IMG/VR virus record: IMGVR_UViG_2698536476_000008
Direction: 5' to 3' (one strand)
Length of the DNA: 64,000 nt
Source: a virus
Taxonomy: Duplodnaviria > Heunggongvirae > Uroviricota > Caudoviricetes
Numbering within the stretch: the stretch's first letter is position 1; each line of letters begins with the position of its first letter. Of this stretch, positions 2,723 to 64,000 are shown one piece after another. The notes below the pieces were generated by a model. The model was not told the origin of the DNA. It searched no databases and was given only the letters and a program-made list of their open reading frames with translations. Position numbers and translations under genes: made by a program.

Positions 2723-4152
2723 TCCTCCTCATACGAAATATTAAAGGTGGAGTTTTCTGTATCCAGATAAACGAAATCGTAAAAGCCGTTGGACTCATTC
2801 CACTCGACAAATTCCAGATAAAAGTCGCGGAAATAACCCAGCGTTTCGATAAATGCCCAAACGTCTTTTTTCTTGATTAGGATGTACTTGCCGACACGGT
2901 TCGGATCAAAGAAAGTTGAGTCACGCCCAAATTTTGTTTCCAGTGCCGACTTCAGCTCATCAGTCACGTTCTCAATGGTCAGGCTTGCCGATATCCGCCC
3001 AGTGATGGTGATCTTAAAGGGGAGTTTTCTGACCTCTTTATACGAGAATTTCTTGTTCAACTCATTCGGCACCTTCTTAAAGGCAGCCAGGATCATTTCT
3101 TCAAGCTCTGACTGGCTTTTGTTTGGATGCCATCCTGAAATAAATATCTTATTGATATTCCGAACATTATAAGCACCATCTAATTTCTCTTGCTGGCCTT
3201 CGCCCCATGCCTTTACCCAGGACAGTCCCGGGATGTTACGCACCAGAAAATACGTATAGTCCCCGCCCCATACGACCTGATCATCATAGGCAAGGTAATA
3301 TTGTGCACGATTACGTGTGATCTCCGTTGTTTCGGCATCGGTACCTGCGGTTATGGGTGTCGTTGTCTTAACTGAAATCAAATTAGCTAAATTAGCCGCA
3401 GAATCGACAGGAGTCAGGTTTTGGCCAGCAACCAGGGTTATATCTCCGTTGGTGCACCATACCTTAAGTGTAATGGTCGAGCCTTCTGGCGGTATTTGCC
3501 CAATTAGCCCATCACCGAATCGAACCCCCAACTGCTCGGATGGCTTATAAAACTCAACGTAGACCTGGCTTTTACTACCGGCTAACCGGAACATAGTGCT
3601 GGAAGACCACTGCGTGGTCTTACCATCGGTCGTCACGAATACTTCCAGCTTATAGCAGACAGCAGTGAGAGCCTTTGATAACACGACTTCCAGAAATTCT
3701 TTGGCTGCCGTAACGGTATATGTCACCTCCTGGATTTCCAACTGTGCCACTTCTACCGTACCGGTGCCGTCAACCAACCTGCATACATCCATAGTCATGT
3801 AAGGGTACTGGTCGTCAGATATTAAAGGCATATTTTTGGGGATTACCGCTGGGGCATCTTCACTTGTGGCGGTGATCTCAATCATCCCCGATGACGGTGT
3901 TGGCTTGGTACCAACGTAACTATTCGTTTCTGCCGCTGCCAGGATAGAGGAACGCCGCGTCGCGGTCGATATAAAGCCTTCAGCCAGCGCCGCATCGGCA
4001 TACTGAAAGCACCTGTAGACAATCTGGGTAATAAACAATGTCAGCATCGAGACAAATTGAGAGCCGACAAACTTCGACCAGAATGAATCTTTCTCGACAA
4101 GCTCTTCAAACTCTGCACGAATACTGTCTTTAGTCGGTGTTGTTTTACTCAT
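2719..4152 (-). CDS. Baseplate J-like protein (477 aa)
   Basis: ORF track; size and position between wedge-like and fibre genes; overlaps neighbours by 4 bp. Confidence 0.45.
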   Translation of the reverse strand: MSKTTPTKDSIRAEFEELVEKDSFWSKFVGSQFVSMLTLFITQIVYRCFQYADAALAEGFISTATRRSSILAAAETNSYVGTKPTPSSGMIEITATSEDAPAVIPKNMPLISDDQYPYMTMDVCRLVDGTGTVEVAQLEIQEVTYTVTAAKEFLEVVLSKALTAVCYKLEVFVTTDGKTTQWSSSTMFRLAGSKSQVYVEFYKPSEQLGVRFGDGLIGQIPPEGSTITLKVWCTNGDITLVAGQNLTPVDSAANLANLISVKTTTPITAGTDAETTEITRNRAQYYLAYDDQVVWGGDYTYFLVRNIPGLSWVKAWGEGQQEKLDGAYNVRNINKIFISGWHPNKSQSELEEMILAAFKKVPNELNKKFSYKEVRKLPFKITITGRISASLTIENVTDELKSALETKFGRDSTFFDPNRVGKYILIKKKDVWAFIETLGYFRDFYLEFVEWNESNGFYDFVYLDTENSTFNISYEEE

Positions 4153-11307: not shown

Positions 11308-11404
11308 TATAACCTCACCTGCCTTATAACTCATTTAGGGTACATATTTTCGCCTTTAAAAAAAAGAGGTTATTAGATCCAATTGTGTATTTATTAAGCA
11401 TGCA

Positions 11405-11420
11405 ATGCTCTAATAAATTT
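11405..11420 (+). promoter_or_regulatory. C1-operator-like site (ATGCTCTAATAAATTT)
   Basis: Match to recalled P1 C1 operator consensus ATTGCTCTAATAAATTT; lies upstream of icd-ant locus. Confidence 0.55.
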
Positions 11421-11589
11421 GTATTTTTAAGTCACGAATGCTATCTTTTCACATCATATTGACCTTTTAATCGTTCAGGCTTATAGTTCCGCCGTCGTAG
11501 CAAATTCTGCGACCGGGTTTAGCAGCCTGAATACTTACGCGGACAACCGCAGATTTCCGATATTGCGGTATTTTTGTGTCCGTAAACCA

Positions 11590-11670
11590 CGTTACGCCCG
11601 AATTATGGTGGGGCGTGATGGGGAGGCTTCGGCCTGCTGGTTTCGTAAGTGCCAGTCTGCTAACCCCGTC
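11590..11670 (+). ncRNA. Candidate c4-like immunity RNA (coordinates approximate)
   Basis: Block TATGGTGGGGCGTGATGGGGAGGCTTCGGCCTGCTGG conserved with 62083-62125, with compensatory changes around a TTCG-loop hairpin; sits between operator and icd as in P1 immI. Confidence 0.35.
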
Positions 11671-11732
11671 ACGTCCTGCCACCTGTTTAGCAGCGGGTCG
11701 CAGGTTGTTTATCAACTTACGAGGCCGTAACT

Positions 11733-11954
11733 ATGGTTAATGCCAATCCTTGCGCACGCCAAGAATTCATCTGGCGGTTCTATTCCTGTAAAAAACACCA
11801 CTATCACTTCGTTATCGCAGCAACAGAAGACGAAGCACGCTCTCAATTGCCTGATGGCCCCTGCATTTTTACTGCCCGTTTTTCAACTAACTCGCGCAAT
11901 TCACTTAGTTACTGGAGCCTCCCCTTCTCTGCCGACGTTCAGGGGGGTTTATGA
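11733..11954 (+). CDS. icd: Icd-like small protein (73 aa), overlaps ant start
   Basis: 73-aa ORF ending in ATGA overlap with ant; paralog at 62222-62443. Confidence 0.55.
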   Translation: MVNANPCARQEFIWRFYSCKKHHYHFVIAATEDEARSQLPDGPCIFTARFSTNSRNSLSYWSLPFSADVQGGL

Positions 11955-12994
11955 AAAAACCTCTCGTCACCCGTAATGACATAGCCGAAGCGATCGCCCT
12001 GCATACTGCCTGTATGCCGACACGGGAGATCCCCGGCGCAATTGCCAACTATTTCATGATAACCAGACGTTTTTATACCCGAACAGATAAGGCTGTGATC
12101 AACAAGCTACTGATAGCCGAGATCAGGGATTATTTGATTGAACAAGGACGTCTACGTTACGCAACAGTGGCAGCAGAAATGAGAAAGGAGGCACATAGAA
12201 TGACCGGTAATAATTTGAATGTTGAAAAAACAGCACCTGTTACGTCAGCTACGCCAGCACCAGCCGTGAATATCATCCCCAACACCGGAGACACAATCGA
12301 CAGCCTGACACTGTTAAAGATGGTCAATGAAGCGCGTAAGTTATGTGGGGAACCAGAGGTTCGGAACAACAAATTCATCGAAAAAATACTCGACGAATTA
12401 GAAGGTGAGGACGGTTACACAAAAAGTGCAACCGTGCCGCCAGGTGGCGGTACGCCTATGGTTGTCATAACCATGACCTACAAACAAGCCCTGCGAGTCG
12501 CCGCACGCGAATCAAAAGCCGTCCGCCGTTCGCTGATCGACAAACTGGAAGAATTGCAGCAGGCAAACTCCCCTGCCCCATCGATCCCCCAAACATTACC
12601 AGAAGCTCTACGCCTGGCTGCCGAGTTGGCAGAACAGAAAATGCAGCTGGAACAACAGCTGGTGGCCGCAGCCCCTAAAGTCGATTTTGCCGACCGGGTA
12701 TCAGTGGCCAATGGAATCCTGATCGGGAACTTTGCAAAGGTCGTTGGACTTAAGCAAAACGCCCTTTTCTCATGGTTGCGCCAGAACGGCATTCTCATGG
12801 CTTTTGGTGCGCGCAAAAACGTACCGCGCCAACAGTACATCAACGCCGGGTATTTCACGGTGAAAGAAGTGGTGCTGGATGATGAAAATGGCTACCAGAT
12901 ACGGCTGACGCCCCAATTAACGGGTAAAGGCCAGCAGTGGTTAACTCGCAAGCTACTTGATGCTGGTTTGTTAAAACCAGTAGCAATAGGTTAA
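11951..12994 (+). CDS. ant: Antirepressor Ant (347 aa) with C-terminal KilAC-type domain
   Basis: C-terminal PKVDFADRVSVANGILIGNFAKVVGLKQNALF...GYFTVKEVVLDDENGYQIRLTPQLTGKGQQWLTRKLLDAG. Confidence 0.75.
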   Translation: MKKPLVTRNDIAEAIALHTACMPTREIPGAIANYFMITRRFYTRTDKAVINKLLIAEIRDYLIEQGRLRYATVAAEMRKEAHRMTGNNLNVEKTAPVTSATPAPAVNIIPNTGDTIDSLTLLKMVNEARKLCGEPEVRNNKFIEKILDELEGEDGYTKSATVPPGGGTPMVVITMTYKQALRVAARESKAVRRSLIDKLEELQQANSPAPSIPQTLPEALRLAAELAEQKMQLEQQLVAAAPKVDFADRVSVANGILIGNFAKVVGLKQNALFSWLRQNGILMAFGARKNVPRQQYINAGYFTVKEVVLDDENGYQIRLTPQLTGKGQQWLTRKLLDAGLLKPVAIG

Positions 12995-13158: not shown

Positions 13159-13959
13159 ATGCAACAAACATTCAATGCGGATATGAATATATCAAACCTT
13201 CATCAAAATGTCGATCCTTCAACCACTCTGCCCGTTATTTGTGGTGTTGAAATTACGACCGACCGCGCTGGCCGTTACAACCTTAATGCTCTACACAGAG
13301 CGAGCGGACTCGGTGCCCATAAAGCGCCAGCTCAATGGCTAAGAACGCTGTCAGCCAAACAGCTCATCGAAGAGCTTGAAAAAGAAACTATGCAGAATTG
13401 CATAGTTTCGTTCGAAGGCCGTGGCGGCGGCACTTTTGCCCATGAATTGCTCGCAGTGGAGTACGCAGGCTGGATTTCTCCCGCGTTTCGGCTGAAGGTA
13501 AACCAGACATTTATCGACTATCGAGCCGGAAGATTACAACCTGCTATTCCGAAGAGCCTCCCAGAAGCTCTCCGTTTGGCTGCTGACCTGGCAGAGCAAA
13601 AGCAACGGCTGGAGCAAAAAATGCTGATGGATGCACCTAAAGTCGAATTCGCCGAACGCGTTGCTACCGCCAGCGGGGTTCTAATCGGCAACTATGCCAA
13701 AGTGCTCGGCCTGGGCCAAAACTATCTCTTCACCTGGTTGCGTGATAACGGAATTCTGATCGCAACCGGTGAACGCAGGAACGTCCCCAAACAAGAATAC
13801 ATATCCCGTGGGTATTTCACCCTTAAAGAAACCGTGATCGATACAAGCAATGGAAGCAGGATTTCTTTCACGACTCGTATAACCGGCAAAGGTCAGCAGT
13901 GGCTGATGAAGCGATTGCTTGATGCTGGTGTGCTGGTACCTGTCGCGGCAACGCGCTAA
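13159..13959 (+). CDS. kilA: KilA (266 aa): KilA-N domain plus KilAC antirepressor-type C-terminus
   Basis: N-terminal ...ITTDRAGRYNLNALHRASGLGAHKAPAQWL...; C-terminal domain shared with Ant; size as recalled for P1 KilA. Confidence 0.7.
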   Translation: MQQTFNADMNISNLHQNVDPSTTLPVICGVEITTDRAGRYNLNALHRASGLGAHKAPAQWLRTLSAKQLIEELEKETMQNCIVSFEGRGGGTFAHELLAVEYAGWISPAFRLKVNQTFIDYRAGRLQPAIPKSLPEALRLAADLAEQKQRLEQKMLMDAPKVEFAERVATASGVLIGNYAKVLGLGQNYLFTWLRDNGILIATGERRNVPKQEYISRGYFTLKETVIDTSNGSRISFTTRITGKGQQWLMKRLLDAGVLVPVAATR

Positions 13960-13988: not shown

Positions 13989-14834
13989 ATGCTGGCTAAA
14001 GTCACTTTCCTGAGCTGTATAACGATGAGCGATTTTACTTTTTCTGGCTATGAATTGGCCTGCTTTGTAACACACTCCGGTCTATCCCGTAGCGCCGGGC
14101 ATATCCTGTCGCAATGTGCAAATCTAGCGGCAACAACCAGTGAATACTTCATTCACAAGCCTCACCGCCTGATCGCGGCAGAAACTGGTTATAGCCAATC
14201 AACCGTCGTTCGTGCATTCCGTGAAGCTGTAAACAAAGGAATTCTGTCTGTAGAGATTGTTATCGGCGATCACCGTGAACGTCGCGCTAACCTGTACCGG
14301 TTTACACCATCCTTTTTGGCCTTCGCACAACAAGCCAAAAATGCGCTGATTGAAAGCAAATTAAAGATCTCTTCAGCGGCAACCAAGGTTAAAGCTGTTC
14401 TCGCTAAGACATTGGCTTTATTTAATTTTTTATCCACACCCCCATGTCAAAATGATACCCCCTCCCCCTGTCAGGATGACGTGGCAATAAAGAATAAGAA
14501 GTCACAAGTTAAAAAAACAAAAAGATCAGTTTCCGGCGGTGCCGGAACGACCAGACTCAAAAAATTGACTTCATGGATCGCTGAGGCAAAAACAAAGGCT
14601 GACAATCTGCGGTTATCCAAAAAACGCGCTCAAAAACATGAGTTCAAGCAGAAAGTAGAGGCGGCAGCGCGGAAATATGCTTACCTGAAGAACAAGCGTT
14701 CTCCTGATATTGGCGGGGTATCAAACTTCGATAATCTGCCGCATTGCATGACGGTAAACGAAGCTCTTAATGCGGTTTTAGCCAAAAATAAAGATAACGA
14801 ACAATGGGGTATACCGGCAGGATTCAGAGGGTGA
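13989..14834 (+). CDS. repL: RepL lytic replication protein (281 aa)
   Basis: HTH ETGYSQSTVVRAFREAVNKGIL; size and position after kilA as in P1. Confidence 0.7.
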   Translation: MLAKVTFLSCITMSDFTFSGYELACFVTHSGLSRSAGHILSQCANLAATTSEYFIHKPHRLIAAETGYSQSTVVRAFREAVNKGILSVEIVIGDHRERRANLYRFTPSFLAFAQQAKNALIESKLKISSAATKVKAVLAKTLALFNFLSTPPCQNDTPSPCQDDVAIKNKKSQVKKTKRSVSGGAGTTRLKKLTSWIAEAKTKADNLRLSKKRAQKHEFKQKVEAAARKYAYLKNKRSPDIGGVSNFDNLPHCMTVNEALNAVLAKNKDNEQWGIPAGFRG

Positions 14835-15130: not shown

Positions 15131-15253
15131 TACAATCGTTGCGGGTGCTTGAGGCTATCTGCTTCAGGCATTACCCGAAAAGCAGATAGAAGAAAGCCCC
15201 AGATAACATCACGCGTCCTGCAAGACGCTTAACATTAATCTGAGGCCATATCT

Positions 15254-15460
15254 ATGCTTAGCATACGTAGATTAGCCTCTTACCGACCAAAAGGTCAAGG
15301 AGAAGTAGGCTATGAAGCAGCAAAAAGCGATGTTAATCGCTCTGATCGTCATCTGTTTAACCGTCATTGTGACGGCACTGGTAACGAGGAAAGACCTCTG
15401 CGAGGTACGAATCCGAACCGGCCAGACGGAGGTCACTGTCTTCACAGCCTACGAATCTGA
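15254..15460 (+). CDS. mok-like overlapping reading frame upstream of and overlapping hok
   Basis: 68-aa ORF in a different frame overlapping the hok-like gene, as in hok/mok/sok loci. Confidence 0.35.
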   Translation: MLSIRRLASYRPKGQGEVGYEAAKSDVNRSDRHLFNRHCDGTGNEERPLRGTNPNRPDGGHCLHSLRI

Positions 15461-31988: not shown

Positions 31989-32064
31989 GATGGTGTAGCT
32001 CAGCGGTTAGAGCGGTTGACTGTTAATCAACGGGTCGATGGTTCAAATCCATCCACCATCGCCA
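31989..32064 (+). tRNA. tRNA-Asn (anticodon GTT)
   Basis: Cloverleaf by eye: acceptor GATGGTG/CACCATC, anticodon loop CTGTTAA, T-arm GGTTCAAATCC, encoded CCA. Confidence 0.9.
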
Positions 32065-32066
32065 AT

Positions 32067-32142
32067 GCCGGTTTAGCTCAGTTGGTAGAGCGCCTGCCTT
32101 GTAAGCAGGATGTCAGCGGTTCGATTCCGTTAATCGGCACCA
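32067..32142 (+). tRNA. tRNA-Thr (anticodon TGT)
   Basis: Acceptor GCCGGTT/AATCGGC, anticodon loop CTTGTAA, T-arm GGTTCGATTCC, encoded CCA. Confidence 0.9.
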
Positions 32143-34115: not shown

Positions 34116-34142
34116 AAGCGTAAGCAAAATTGGCAGTAATCC

Positions 34143-34218
34143 GGCCCTTTAGCTCAGTGGTTAGAGCTGGCGACTCATAATCGCACGGTCACCGGTTCAA
34201 GTCCGGTAGGGGCCACCA
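34143..34218 (+). tRNA. tRNA-Ile2 type (anticodon CAT, lysidine-type by resemblance to E. coli ileX)
   Basis: GGCCCTTTAGCTCAGTGGTTAGAGC...CTCATAA...GGTTCAAGTCC...GGGGCCACCA. Confidence 0.85.
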
Positions 34219-34498
34219 TATTTGGTTGTAACACGGCGTCTGGCACATGCGTCGTTAGCGGTCTGGTGACGTTAAAAGGGGGGAACCTTGCCCCTAGCTC
34301 AGGCAACGAACCAGGTAGCCGGAATGTGCAAGCCACCGTTTGTTGTTTCTCGGGTAAAGGGATTCACCATCCTGGCGATTCGGTGTGACAGCCGGGAAGA
34401 GTCCGGCGCATTAATCCTGATTTTCTGGTGATGACTCATATCGTTAGGAGTGATTTGAGTATGCCGATTATATCTGACATTCAGCACGCCTGGGTGGA

Positions 34499-60399: not shown

Positions 60400-61883
60400 T
60401 GGCCAGAAGTTGCGTAACGGATCCTCGTTGGCGCGAGCTGGTGGCGCTATATCGTTATGACTGGATTGCTGCCGCTGATGTTTTGTTCGGCAAAACACCT
60501 ACCTGGCAGCAGGATCTGATTATTGAGTCTGTGCAGGAACAGGGTAGCAAGACATCTGTTTCGTCTGGTCACGGTACCGGGAAATCAGACATGACTTCTA
60601 TCATGATCATGTTGTTCATAATCATGTATCCCGGTGCCCGCGCCATTATCGTTGCGAACAAAATTCAGCAGGTAATGACCGGTATATTCAAGTACATCAA
60701 GATAAACTGGGCTACTGCCACCAGCCGTTTTCCATGGCTTGCTGATTATTTTGTTCTGACAGAAACCGCTTTCTATGAGGTTACTGGTAAAGGTGTATGG
60801 ACTGTAGTACCGAAGGGCTTTCGTCTGGGAAGTGAAGAAGCTCTCGCCGGTGAACACGCAGATCATCTTCTGTATATTATCGATGAAGCCTCCGGTGTCA
60901 GTGATAGAGCTTTCGGTATCATCACCGGTGCTCTTACCGGACAGGATAACCGCATCTTATTACTGTCACAGCCTACACGCCCAAGCGGCTATTTCTACGA
61001 TACTCACCATAAACTGGCCAAGCGTCCTGGTAACCCAGATGGCGTTTATACGGCGATCACGCTTAACAGTGAGGAATCACCGCTGGTAACGCCAGAATTT
61101 ATCAAAATGAAGCTGGCGGAGTACGGCGGGCGTGATAACCCTATGTACATGATTAAGGTGCGCGGCCTATTCCCTAAATCACAGGACGGCTTCCTTCTTG
61201 GACGTGATGAGGTTGAACGTGCAACGCGGCGGAAAGTTAAGATTGCCAAAGGATGGGGCTGGCTTGCATGTGTGGACGTTGCTGGTGGTACGGGACGGGA
61301 TAAGTCAGTTATCAATATCATGATGGTGTCCGGCCAGCGAAATAAACGCCGTGTAATCAACTATCGAATGCTGGAATACACAGACGTTACAGAAACGCAG
61401 CTTGCCGCCAAAATTTTCGCAGAATGTAATCCTGAGCGATTCCCCAATATCACCATAGCGATAGATGGCGATGGCCTGGGTAAAGCAACAGCGGATCTGA
61501 TGTACGAGTATTATGGTATTACCGTACAGCGTATACGCTGGGGTAAAAAGATGCATAGCCGTGAAGATAAGAGCCTGTACTTTGATAAACGTGCTTATGC
61601 CAACGTTCAAGCCGCAGAGGCCGTAAAATCTGGTCGTATGAGACTGGATAAGGGTAATGAAACTATTGAGGAAGCGTCGAAAATCCCTGTAGGGATTAAC
61701 TCCGCAGGTCAATGGAAGGTGATGAGTAAGGAGGATATGAAGAAAAAACTCAACCTGCACTCACCAGACCATTGGGATACATATTGTTTCGCTATGCTGG
61801 CGGATTATGTTCCCCAGGATGAAGTGCTTAGCGTCGAAGACGAAGCGCAGGTTGATGAAGCTCTGGCATGGCTTAATGAATGA
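60399..61883 (+). CDS. pacB: Terminase large subunit PacB (494 aa)
   Basis: Walker [10 protein letters not shown]; size as recalled for P1 PacB. Confidence 0.85.
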
Positions 61884-61886
61884 ATA

Positions 61887-61903
61887 TTTGCTCTAATAAA
61901 TTG
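61887..61903 (+). promoter_or_regulatory. C1-operator-like site upstream of second icd-ant locus
   Basis: TTTGCTCTAATAAATTG. Confidence 0.6.
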
Positions 61904-62069
61904 TGTTTTTTAGCTACCGATGTTACATTGAACCTGACCTCTTGCGCCTTGAGGCATTTTCGGTTTATGCTTATCAGGCACCTCATTAAAACGGGTGCCG
62001 GGATTGGCCTCCCGCTTAAGTCTAAGGCGATACAGACGCCGCTCGCGTCTTTTTTTGTATCGGCGTACA

Positions 62070-62150
62070 CGCACACCTCTACAATGGTGGGCTGTATGGG
62101 GCTACCTTCGGGTAGGCTGGTTACCTTGGACGCCAGTAAGGCCAACTCCG
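62070..62150 (+). ncRNA. Candidate c4-like immunity RNA, second copy (coordinates approximate)
   Basis: AATGGTGGGCTGTATGGGGCTACCTTCGGGTAGGCTGG conserved with 11604-11645. Confidence 0.35.
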
Positions 62151-62221
62151 TACAGTCCACCGCCAGCAAGATTGGTCTCTTCTGCGGTGGTTACATACCA
62201 ACGTCTAAGGAGGCTGCCAAT

Positions 62222-62443
62222 ATGGCTACTATCCCTACCCCAACTCATCCTGAATTTATCTGGCGCTTTTACTCCTGCCAAAAACGTCACTATCACTTCG
62301 TTATTGCACCAACAGAAGATGAGGCCCGCTCTCAGCTGCCTGACGCCCCATGTATTTTCTCTGCCCGTTTTTCCACTGATTCACGCAATTCTCTCAGTTA
62401 CTGGTACCTCCCTGTTAACGCTTCTGTTCAGGAGGGGCTATGA
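62222..62443 (+). CDS. icd: Icd-like small protein (73 aa), second copy
   Basis: AAGGAGG before ATG 62222; MATIPTPTHPEFIWRFYSCQKRHYHFVIAPTEDEARSQLPD... Confidence 0.55.
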   Translation: MATIPTPTHPEFIWRFYSCQKRHYHFVIAPTEDEARSQLPDAPCIFSARFSTDSRNSLSYWYLPVNASVQEGL

Positions 62444-63558
62444 GAACGTCATTAGTCACCCGTGAAGAGATGATCGAGGCAATTGAACAGCACACTGCCT
62501 GTATCAGCACCAGGGATATTCCCAGTGTTATAGCCAACTACTTCATGATCACTAAACAACTTTACCGGAGAAAGGACAAGAACGCGGTTCACCGTATCCT
62601 GCTGTCTGATATTCGCGAATACCTGCTCGAACAGGGTCATCTGAATTACGCAACCGTCGCAGCCGAAGCACGCAAGGAGGCACACAGAATGAAAGCAACT
62701 AACGTTAAATCAGAAAAAATTCATGCACCTTCAGTTCAGGAATCGGAGCTGGTGGTTGTTCAGAATCAGTCTGATGAAATTCCCGTTCTGGAATGGCAGG
62801 GAGTGCGTGTAGTGACAACCGAGACTCTTGCTAGAGGGTATGGGACAGAAACAATCCGTATTCGCCAAAATCATCATGAGAACAAAGTACGCTTTGTTGA
62901 AGGGAAGCACTTTTTCAAAGTTGAAGGAGAATCATTGCGCGAGTTGAAGCACAGAGTAGCTTTAAACTACTCTGTAAAAATTGCTCGCAATGTTCGCTCA
63001 CTCACCCTCTGGACAGAACGCGGCGCAGCCCGCCACGCTAAAATGCTCGAAACCGATCAGGCATGGGCATTCTTTGAAAAACTGGAAGACAGCTACTTCC
63101 GACAAAAAGAACAGCAACCGATCGCAATCCCCCAGACGCTTCCTGAAGCCCTACGCCTGGCTGCCGAACTGGCTGAACAAAAGCAACTTCTGGAACAGAA
63201 AGCCCACCAGCTAAATCAGCAGCTGGTGGCCGCCGCTCCTAAAGTCGATTTTGCCGACCGGGTATCAGTAGCTAAAGGGATCCTGATTGGGAATTTTGCA
63301 AAGGTTGTTGGACTTAAGCAAAACGCGCTGTTTGTCTGGTTACGGGAGAACGGCATCCTGATAGCGTCCGGTGGACGTAAAAATGTGCCGTTCCAGCAGT
63401 ACATCAACGCGGGGTATTTCACGGTGAAAGAAGTGGTGCTGGATGATGAAGATGGCTACCAGATACGGTTGACGCCTCAATTAACGGGTAAAGGCCAGCA
63501 GTGGTTGACGCGTAAACTGCTCGATGCTGGCTTGTTAAAACCGGTGGCAGCTGAATAA
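62440..63558 (+). CDS. ant: Antirepressor paralog (372 aa) with extra middle domain
   Basis: N- and C-terminal thirds paralogous to Ant at 11951-12994. Confidence 0.75.
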   Translation: MRTSLVTREEMIEAIEQHTACISTRDIPSVIANYFMITKQLYRRKDKNAVHRILLSDIREYLLEQGHLNYATVAAEARKEAHRMKATNVKSEKIHAPSVQESELVVVQNQSDEIPVLEWQGVRVVTTETLARGYGTETIRIRQNHHENKVRFVEGKHFFKVEGESLRELKHRVALNYSVKIARNVRSLTLWTERGAARHAKMLETDQAWAFFEKLEDSYFRQKEQQPIAIPQTLPEALRLAAELAEQKQLLEQKAHQLNQQLVAAAPKVDFADRVSVAKGILIGNFAKVVGLKQNALFVWLRENGILIASGGRKNVPFQQYINAGYFTVKEVVLDDEDGYQIRLTPQLTGKGQQWLTRKLLDAGLLKPVAAE

Positions 63559-63590: not shown

Positions 63591-64000
63591 TTATTGCGCG
63601 CTTTCGGGGTTGTCGTTTACTGGCTGCCCCTTCTTGGTTTTACGACTGCGCGTAACTGATGCGGCTGACTTAACCTTTTTCTCTTCGCGAGTGATGGCAA
63701 TTTGTTTTTTTACATTTTCAATATCTGCCAGGCGATATATTTTTGCTTGCGGCCAGCGGTCGCAGATGATCGGTTCTATGGAGTCATAAAGGCTAAATTT
63801 TGCTTTTTCGAATTCACCGTTGATGATAATTCCATCACGGAGAGTTTCATCGCAGATAAACACGCCACACAGTGGCACATGGTAACTAACTGATTTACCA
63901 TCATTGTAGTTAGGGCTACTGGAAATGTAGTGGACGCGCAGCATTGTTTCGCTAAAGCCGTGTACGCGCATACGGAATTTTTCATCCTCCGGGTACTGCC
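63591..64000 (-). CDS. Hypothetical protein, probably truncated at window end
   Basis: Reading frame stays open upstream of the first Met to the window edge; basic C-terminus. Confidence 0.35.
   Translation of the reverse strand, partial: QYPEDEKFRMRVHGFSETMLRVHYISSSPNYNDGKSVSYHVPLCGVFICDETLRDGIIINGEFEKAKFSLYDSIEPIICDRWPQAKIYRLADIENVKKQIAITREEKKVKSAASVTRSRKTKKGQPVNDNPESAQ

Follow-up and report, generated by a model that had tools for sequence, protein, structure and literature searches.

The basic picture of the C4 antisense RNA has been known since 1990. The P1/P7 paradigm reportedly goes back to Citron and Schuster (1990), Biere et al. (1992) and Hartmann et al. (1995), and P1 c4, at first entered as a coding sequence, was later shown to be RNA. 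In the annotation of P1 (NC_005856), the C4 loops b' and a' pair with sites b2 and a2 at the icd ribosome-binding site and with sites b1 and a1 in the leader. For the interval from pacB to c1, Venturini et al. (2019) listed 'two short hypothetical orfs and ant', as in RCS47, with no mention of an RNA (PMC6906374), and a further stretch with homology to the antisense RNA and icd has been noted in D6-like pYU39_89 (PMC6799933). IsrK belongs to the Hfq-binding RNAs, and its role as a short Hfq-bound sRNA that activates antirepressor translation in trans is known only from Gifsy-1, where the increase is ~140-fold; the read-through transcript of that locus also yields a processed RNA of ~80 nt, STnc1160 (PMC4825925). 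Hershko-Shalev et al. (2016) likened IsrK and STnc1160 to seqA and the CI RNA of P4 and did not mention P1 (PMC4825925); in a 2025 review, IsrK and c4 appear as items with no relation to each other (PMC12197685). With limited literature access, we found no paper that treats the C4 at the second site of P1-like elements or the specificity of this RNA.

We analysed a stretch of 64,000 nucleotides (the window), which is part of a P1-like (Punavirus) plasmid prophage. It contains two complete modules, each composed of operator, leader, C4, icd and ant. The initial annotation had flagged positions 62070-62150 as a conserved C4-like RNA block present in two copies. This designation holds, as the block belongs to a full-length match to the Rfam C4 family (RF01695) with 75.9 bits against a threshold of 45. 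The flagged coordinates stop short of the 3' strand of copy 2 and take in its 5' four-fifths (the Rfam match runs from 62080 to 62167). Both copies cover the complete model (positions 1-87 of 87) and score well over the gathering threshold, with E-values of 4.7e-13 for copy 2 and 8.7e-12 for copy 1 when all of Rfam is searched over the whole window. We are highly confident that block 62080-62167 is the C4-type antisense RNA gene of a second complete immI-like operon, which is situated between pacB and c1, ~50 kb from copy 1. The order of this module (module 2) is C1 operator, leader with a1/b1, C4, a2/b2, icd and ant, and its features are as follows.

61887-61903, + strand: C1-operator-like site heading module 2, putative in function; core TGCTCTAATAAATT exact at 61889-61902
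61978-62055, + strand: IsrK-type leader; full-length match to Rfam isrK (RF01394), 60.8 bits, threshold 50
62004-62010, + strand: a1, in the loop of leader hairpin 2, TTGGCCT
62020-62027, + strand: b1, GTCTAAGG
62080-62167, + strand: C4 antisense RNA copy 2; Rfam C4 75.9 bits, E 4.7e-13
62102-62106 with 62111-62115: hairpin 1 of copy 2, UUCG loop at 62107-62110
62124-62132: b' loop of copy 2, CCUUGGACG
62139-62145: a' stretch of copy 2, AGGCCAA
62172-62178, + strand: a2, TTGGTCT, one G.U pair
62172-62212, + strand: C4-2 target region in icd2 translation initiation, predicted by complementarity scans
62202-62210, + strand: b2, CGTCTAAGG, overlapping the Shine-Dalgarno sequence AAGGAGG
62222-62443, + strand: icd2, encoding a 73-aa Icd-like protein; stop overlaps the ant2 start (ATGA)
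62440-63558, + strand: ant2, encoding a 372-aa antirepressor with ORF6N and KilAC/ANT domains (Pfam ANT E 4.2e-31, ORF6N E 2e-19)
63591-64000, - strand: 3' part of c1 (primary repressor), cut by the window end; right border of the inserted module

The pacB stop codon at 61883 lies just ahead of the operator-like site. The icd2 product is 73-75% identical to the Icd of copy 1 and to P1 Icd and 96% identical to the second-site Icd of RCS47, and the c1 fragment (135 aa) is 100% identical to residues 149-283 of RCS47 C1. A sigma-70 consensus scan of 61860-62260 returned no promoter upstream of copy 2; a weak candidate, TTGCGC-18-TATGCT, was picked out by eye only and aligns with the position of P51b.

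The two antirepressors (62440-63558 and 11951-12994) share 55% identity overall, and their KilAC C-terminal thirds are near-identical. In Ant1, the place of the ORF6N domain of Ant2 is taken by an unrelated middle segment, a pattern that points to domain shuffling between the two modules.

Copy 1 is the canonical immI c4 (c4-icd-ant-kilA-repL) and aligns with the annotated c4 of both P1 and P7. Module 1 comprises the following features.

11404-11420, + strand: C1 operator of the immI operon, core exact at 11406-11419; aligns with P1 Oc4/Op51
11481-11575, + strand: leader followed by a terminator-like hairpin with a U-run; Rfam c4-a1b1 56.2 bits, threshold 46.7
11519-11525, + strand: a1, TTAGCAG
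11532-11539, + strand: b1, TACTTACG
11601-11686, + strand: C4 antisense RNA copy 1; Rfam C4 70.8 bits, E 8.7e-12
11624-11627 with 11632-11635: hairpin 1 of copy 1, UUCG loop at 11628-11631
11643-11651: b' loop of copy 1
11657-11663: a' of copy 1, CUGCUAA
11687-11693, + strand: a2, TTAGCAG
11715-11724, + strand: b2, ACTTACGAGG, overlapping the icd1 Shine-Dalgarno sequence, over GAGG
11733-11954, + strand: icd1 (ORF list, translation)
11951-12994, + strand: ant1 (translation, Pfam ANT match)
13159-13959, + strand: ORF at the P1 kilA position (synteny with the P1 annotation)
13989-14834, + strand: ORF at the P1 repL position (ORF list)

The ORF at 13989-14834 is presumably repL, judging from the P1 gene order. 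Over leader plus c4, copy 1 shows 99.4% identity with SJ46 and P1-like records; the identity is 93% with P7 and 92% with P1. A promoter-like site at 11459-11487 corresponds to P51b of P1. Alignment with the ends of the P1 c4 misc_RNA annotation places the predicted mature copy 2 RNA at ~62086-62164; the mature copy 1 RNA would extend over ~11607-11683.

The C1-operator core TGCTCTAATAAATT has 12 matches in the window (at most two mismatches), compared with 0.76 expected. They are found at 11406, 13075 (the kilA/repL operator), 28030, 31306, 47505 and 61889 and at six weaker positions. The twelve matches are predicted to map the C1 regulon of the prophage, with one of them heading the second c4 module.

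Shortly after the ORF at the repL position, we observed a full-length Rfam match to the sok antitoxin RNA (112.3 bits) at 15143-15317 (+) and a 68-aa ORF at 15254-15460; the region 15143-15460 looks like a hok/sok-type toxin-antitoxin locus. The window also carries three tRNA genes on the + strand (31989-32061, 32067-32139 and 34143-34215; Rfam tRNA 65-75 bits), as expected in a P1-like genome.

The strings originally quoted for the two copies are GGGGAGGCTTCGGCCTGCTGG, which we located at 11620-11640 (+), and GGGGCTACCTTCGGGTAGGCTGG at 62098-62120 (+). Each occurs once in the window, and 0 of 100 shuffles contain either. Both copies have the C4 shape, in which a long closing stem surrounds the tetraloop hairpin and a second hairpin. 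As the initial annotation had pointed out, the arms of the tetraloop hairpin are unlike in the two copies yet complementary around UUCG, with AGGC/GCCU in copy 1 and CUACC/GGUAG in copy 2. Across aligned relatives, 612 of 612 cells are paired, and two-sided changes occur in 15 of the 27 pairs, including all five of the tetraloop hairpin. In single-sequence folding, copy 2 has a minimum free energy of -41.6 kcal/mol (z -4.2) and copy 1 one of -46.1 kcal/mol (z -5.9); for each copy, 0 of 200 shuffles fold as well.

The relatives were collected with a covariance model (R2) built from copy 2 and its second-site homologue in RCS47, which was searched against the window, P1, P7, RCS47 and 87 loci found via Icd relatives. 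This search gave 90 matches, corresponding to 14 distinct sequences and three scaffolds. Among these 14 P1-like C4s, 100% of cells are paired and 12 of the 27 pairs show two-sided changes. A wider set of 23 distinct C4s adds Stx-converting, other lambdoid and P22-like phages. A search of genome contigs with Icd gave seven loci, and the Morganella locus among the collected loci has no C4 match with R2. Hairpin 1 occurs as AGGC/GCCU, CUACC/GGUAG, CUGCC/GGCAG, CCGAC/GUCGG, GCACC/GGUGC and other variants, with UUCG or GAAA loops.

It should be noted that the pair counts derive from model-guided alignments (A6 and A8), which are biased to the model structure; slid controls and RNAalifold were therefore added. 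When the structure is slid by 1-3 columns, just 29-49% of cells pair (23-sequence set), and RNAalifold recovers the same three-helix fold from the same alignment, with a covariation term of -7.3 kcal/mol. Plain MAFFT alignment of five c4 sequences left two scaffolds one base out of register and was excluded from the pair counts. Even allowing for this bias, the gap between the structure and its slid versions is wide, and the family is separately curated in Rfam.

The recognition loops of the two copies are unrelated. Copy 1 has a' CUGCUAA and b' (UUU)CGUAAGUG, and copy 2 has a' AGGCCAA and b' CCUUGGAC(G). The complementary sites looked for upstream of each icd are present, with b2 overlapping the icd Shine-Dalgarno sequence in both modules, and a2 and b2 of module 1 agree in position with those annotated in P1. 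Contiguous cognate pairing amounts to 7-10 nt at all eight sites of the window, the a2 and b1/b2 pairings of copy 2 including one G.U wobble each, whereas non-cognate pairing in the window reaches at most 5-7 nt, is G.U-rich and lies off the sites. With RNAduplex, cognate b' duplexes have energies of -17 to -19 kcal/mol (-17.1 kcal/mol for b':b2 of copy 2) versus -7 to -12 kcal/mol for non-cognate ones; for a', RNAduplex is less clean (long bulged duplexes are allowed) and contiguous complementarity was used instead. In single-loop shuffle tests, matches as long as those observed arise in 0.3-1.4% of shuffled loops, and the argument for the targets therefore rests mainly on co-variation across genomes.

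This co-variation is consistent throughout. In 44 of 44 C4-plus-flank haplotypes of P1-like elements, as well as in nine further phages and Gifsy-1, a' is complementary to a1 and a2 and b' to b1 and b2. In these haplotypes, one complement of a' lies ~60-100 nt upstream and the other 1-5 nt downstream, and b' has an upstream site and a second one that overlaps the Shine-Dalgarno sequence ahead of the following ORF. About 20 a'/b' combinations occur, eight on the canonical scaffold (five b' by two a'), five at the second site, and lambdoid phages account for the others; the P1-like sample holds at least 13. In all related haplotypes that were compared, loops and target sites change in concert. 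Such joint change of a', b' and the four targets indirectly supports the view that C4 would repress icd/ant and set immI specificity. As a' and b' are unrelated in the two C4s, each should control only its own operon, and C4-1 and C4-2 are expected to be orthogonal ('heteroimmune').

On the model of P1/P7, and given the strong co-variation of its targets, copy 2 would act in the following way. The operon transcript would be processed to a stable RNA of ~77-78 nt, with RNase P generating the 5' end. The b' loop and the a' single strand would then pair with b2 and a2 on the mRNA of the same operon and cover the icd ribosome-binding site, so that icd translation is blocked and, through translational coupling and polarity, Ant synthesis with it. 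With no Ant made, C1 repression, and hence lysogeny, would be kept. The UUCG hairpin would be a structural part of the C4 scaffold, a role in which its arms should change only in compensating pairs. Copy 1 would do the equivalent job for the canonical immI operon, and expression, processing, repression and freedom from cross-talk are predicted for both copies by this analogy.

The leader of module 2 adds a further element. It consists of two hairpins, the a1/b1 sites and an intrinsic terminator (terminator scan; stem 62034-62050 and T-run), and apart from its full-length isrK match it has a weak, sub-threshold match to c4-a1b1 (20.5 bits, E 0.005). Conversely, the module 1 leader matches the full isrK model with 47.9 bits (E 1.9e-9), slightly below the threshold of 50. 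Gifsy-1 isrK itself (79.3 bits) also passes the c4-a1b1 threshold with 48.1 bits and has a C4 match of 69 bits immediately behind it. This cassette, at 34131-34329 of the Gifsy-1 locus, has the same a/b complementarity as module 2. Since Gifsy-1 isrK is followed by a C4 match, isrK and the P1 a1b1 leader appear to be the same element. By these matches, Rfam isrK and c4-a1b1 would describe one element, and the Gifsy-1 'orf45'/STnc1160 region is predicted to be a C4 RNA. Some Stx-phage records, LC710660 for instance, annotate both ncRNAs side by side.

In Rfam, isrK (RF01394) and c4-a1b1 (RF03163) give reciprocal matches on one leader element (61978-62055 and 11494-11575), and isrK stands outside the C4 clan CL00128.

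By analogy to IsrK activation, it is plausible that the leader acts as an a1/b1 decoy for C4, as an added layer of control in module 2. An alternative reading takes this further and regards copy 2 chiefly as part of an IsrK-type activating switch, in which the terminated leader RNA pairs with C4 and turns icd/ant on, and C4, free or in the read-through transcript, is the sequestering element that the leader counters. The isrK score and intrinsic terminator of the module 2 leader agree with this, as do the position of Gifsy-1 isrK directly before a C4 match and its ~140-fold activation in trans (PMC4825925). Furthermore, a1/b1 co-vary with a'/b' in every haplotype, which argues that leader:C4 pairing is under selection. 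Nevertheless, such a switch would be an extra layer that does not contradict the C4 repressor model, the sequence equally fits a leader serving as decoy, activator or processing guide, and a1/b1 of P1 are annotated as 'putative'. We consider this reading quite possible, if somewhat short of probable.

More tentatively, and with some doubt on our part, each module may be a two-RNA toggle in which the terminated leader (IsrK/a1b1 RNA) is a decoy that titrates C4, the prophage then carrying two orthogonal, C1-gated toggles. If so, the threshold for antirepressor release would depend on how much of the transcript terminates relative to how much reads through, and the prophage would have immunity to two heteroimmune superinfecting classes and two independent induction inputs. 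As a corollary, isrK would equal c4-a1b1, orf45/STnc1160 would be a C4 RNA and the Ash family would be mostly a translated RNA locus.

Returning to copy 2 as the antisense repressor of its own operon, one may ask whether it could instead be a decaying, nonfunctional remnant of recombination or duplication, given that it lies outside the canonical immI position and that the sigma-70 scan found no promoter at module 2. However, the parts of the module are all intact (operator core, leader, terminator, 27 base pairs, four target sites, icd and ant), and it is found at 99% identity or more in 81 plasmids. In addition, sister variants at the pacB-c1 locus have a', b' and all four targets changed together, which indicates selection on function. 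We regard decay as very unlikely.

Finally, the stretch might be protein-coding. The icd2 frame is open from 61880, and the resulting 187-aa product of an extended Icd or 'Ash family' ORF (61880-62443), which includes the leader and C4, matches Pfam PF10554 (Phage_ASH) with 44.5 bits (cut-off 26), the sole protein-family match to this stretch. On the opposite strand, a 98-aa ORF (61873-62169) is open in RCS47 too, with 65% identity, and Gifsy-1 'orf45', which overlaps the homologous RNA, has been reported as translated (PMC4825925). Against this, Phage_ASH matches the RCS47 homologue with 66.7 bits across two in-frame stop codons (positions 3080-3400 of that locus) and has no match on copy 1 and 14.8 bits on P1, in both of which the frames are interrupted. 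Because it reads through stops and fails where frames are broken, the similarity appears to be at the nucleic acid level. Variants differ from one another by paired changes in the helices and by indels of a single base rather than by synonymous drift, and the antisense ORF keeps its identity only in the leader, where the DNA is near-identical, and loses it over C4. P1 c4 itself was initially annotated as a CDS (record X15639). The paired helix changes and the Phage_ASH match through the stops in RCS47 thus bear out the original assignment as conserved RNA structure rather than coding sequence, and we regard a coding function as very unlikely. The matches also suggest that the Pfam Ash family PF10554 may largely capture translated RNA-coding DNA. 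The TTCG hairpin was also considered as a transcription terminator or DNA palindrome and rejected in both roles, as no U-run follows it and it lies inside a larger conserved fold.

In several lambdoid phage records, a CDS annotated as 'Rha', 'Ant' or 'transcriptional regulator' (L094 851-1993, L095 845-1993 and L096 977-1999) spans the isrK-C4 cassette (C4 at 1306-1393). These CDSs probably have over-extended start codons.

In PLSDB, 276 plasmids carry the second-site leader and 571 the canonical leader with c4, so that about half of the P1-like PLSDB plasmids carry a second c4-icd-ant module. The copy 2 type itself, over at least 80% of the query, is found in 103 of the 276, with 81 at 99% identity or more. 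Of the sequenced phages, vB_EcoM-673R5 carries both copies; the sister variant occurs in RCS47 and JL22.

One contig of 42 kb with three icd matches (L018, L085 and L091) shows a further arrangement. In IMGVR_UViG_2698536372_000019 (L018), a perfect 300-nt direct repeat (1119-1418 and 2685-2984, 1566 nt apart) duplicates the pacB end, the leader and a C4 of the copy 2 type. Either the module has been duplicated in tandem here, or the repeat is an assembly artefact.

The C4 family is long known and curated, and the second-module architecture is common and partly described. What we add is useful tidying, namely two orthogonal modules, an a'/b' code, IsrK as the a1b1 leader and a doubtful Ash family. 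Its value lies in the annotation of P1-like phage-plasmids, which spread resistance genes, and in understanding immunity among them. In P1-like records, C4 usually goes unannotated or is masked by 'hypothetical protein' entries and by CDSs extended too far. Together, the a'/b' loops and the four targets of each C4 make up a small combinatorial code that should predict mutual immunity of elements, and three separate literatures are joined, those on P1 c4, on Gifsy-1 IsrK and on the Rha/Ant cassettes of Stx phages.

Compared with the P1/P7 C4 system (RF01695; immI c4-icd-ant1/2), copy 1 has the same locus and scaffold. Its b' CGUAAGUG differs from CACUAACG of P1 and CACAAUCG of P7, and its a' CUGCUAA is of the P7 type. 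Copy 2 agrees with P1/P7 in its three-helix fold, in where a' and b' lie, in the arrangement of a1/b1 and a2/b2, in the position of b2 over the icd Shine-Dalgarno sequence, in the icd-ant coupling and in the C1-operator core. Its scaffold differs in a 5-bp rather than 4-bp hairpin 1 and in many paired changes in the closing stem, and its a' and b' are unrelated to the P1/P7 loops. Module 2 also departs from P1/P7 in its IsrK-type leader, its position between pacB and c1 and the ORF6N N-terminal half of its Ant.

A known counterpart of module 2 is the second-site insert of RCS47 (FO818745), which has the same insertion point and gene order, with 'ant' annotated between pacB and c1. At the equivalent place, we found C4 (75.4 bits) and isrK (60.2 bits), and the leader is 94% identical to that of module 2. 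The RCS47-type C4 differs from copy 2 in its hairpin, CUGCC-GAAA-GGCAG, in b', which is CCUUUGAC or CCUUUUGC, and in a', which is GUCUCAA or GUUCCAA.

The IsrK-orf45(STnc1160)-anrP region of Gifsy-1 resembles module 2 in having an isrK-family leader followed by a C4 match, and the isrK and C4 cassette before Rha/Ant of Stx phages is ~79% identical to it from the leader to the first codons, MATIP. In contrast to module 2, the RNA of the Gifsy-1 and Stx-phage cassettes lies directly before the antirepressor/Rha gene or orf45, without icd, and unlike this prophage these phages are lambdoid, with CI-type repressors and without the C1 operator. An analogy to the logic of P4 CI has been drawn for Gifsy-1 (PMC4825925). 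Compared by description, P4 CI differs from C4 in causing premature termination of replication-gene transcription rather than occlusion of an antirepressor ribosome-binding site; like C4, however, P4 immunity (CI RNA; seqA and seqB-seqC) uses an RNase P-dependent RNA that pairs with repeats on both sides of it in its own transcript.
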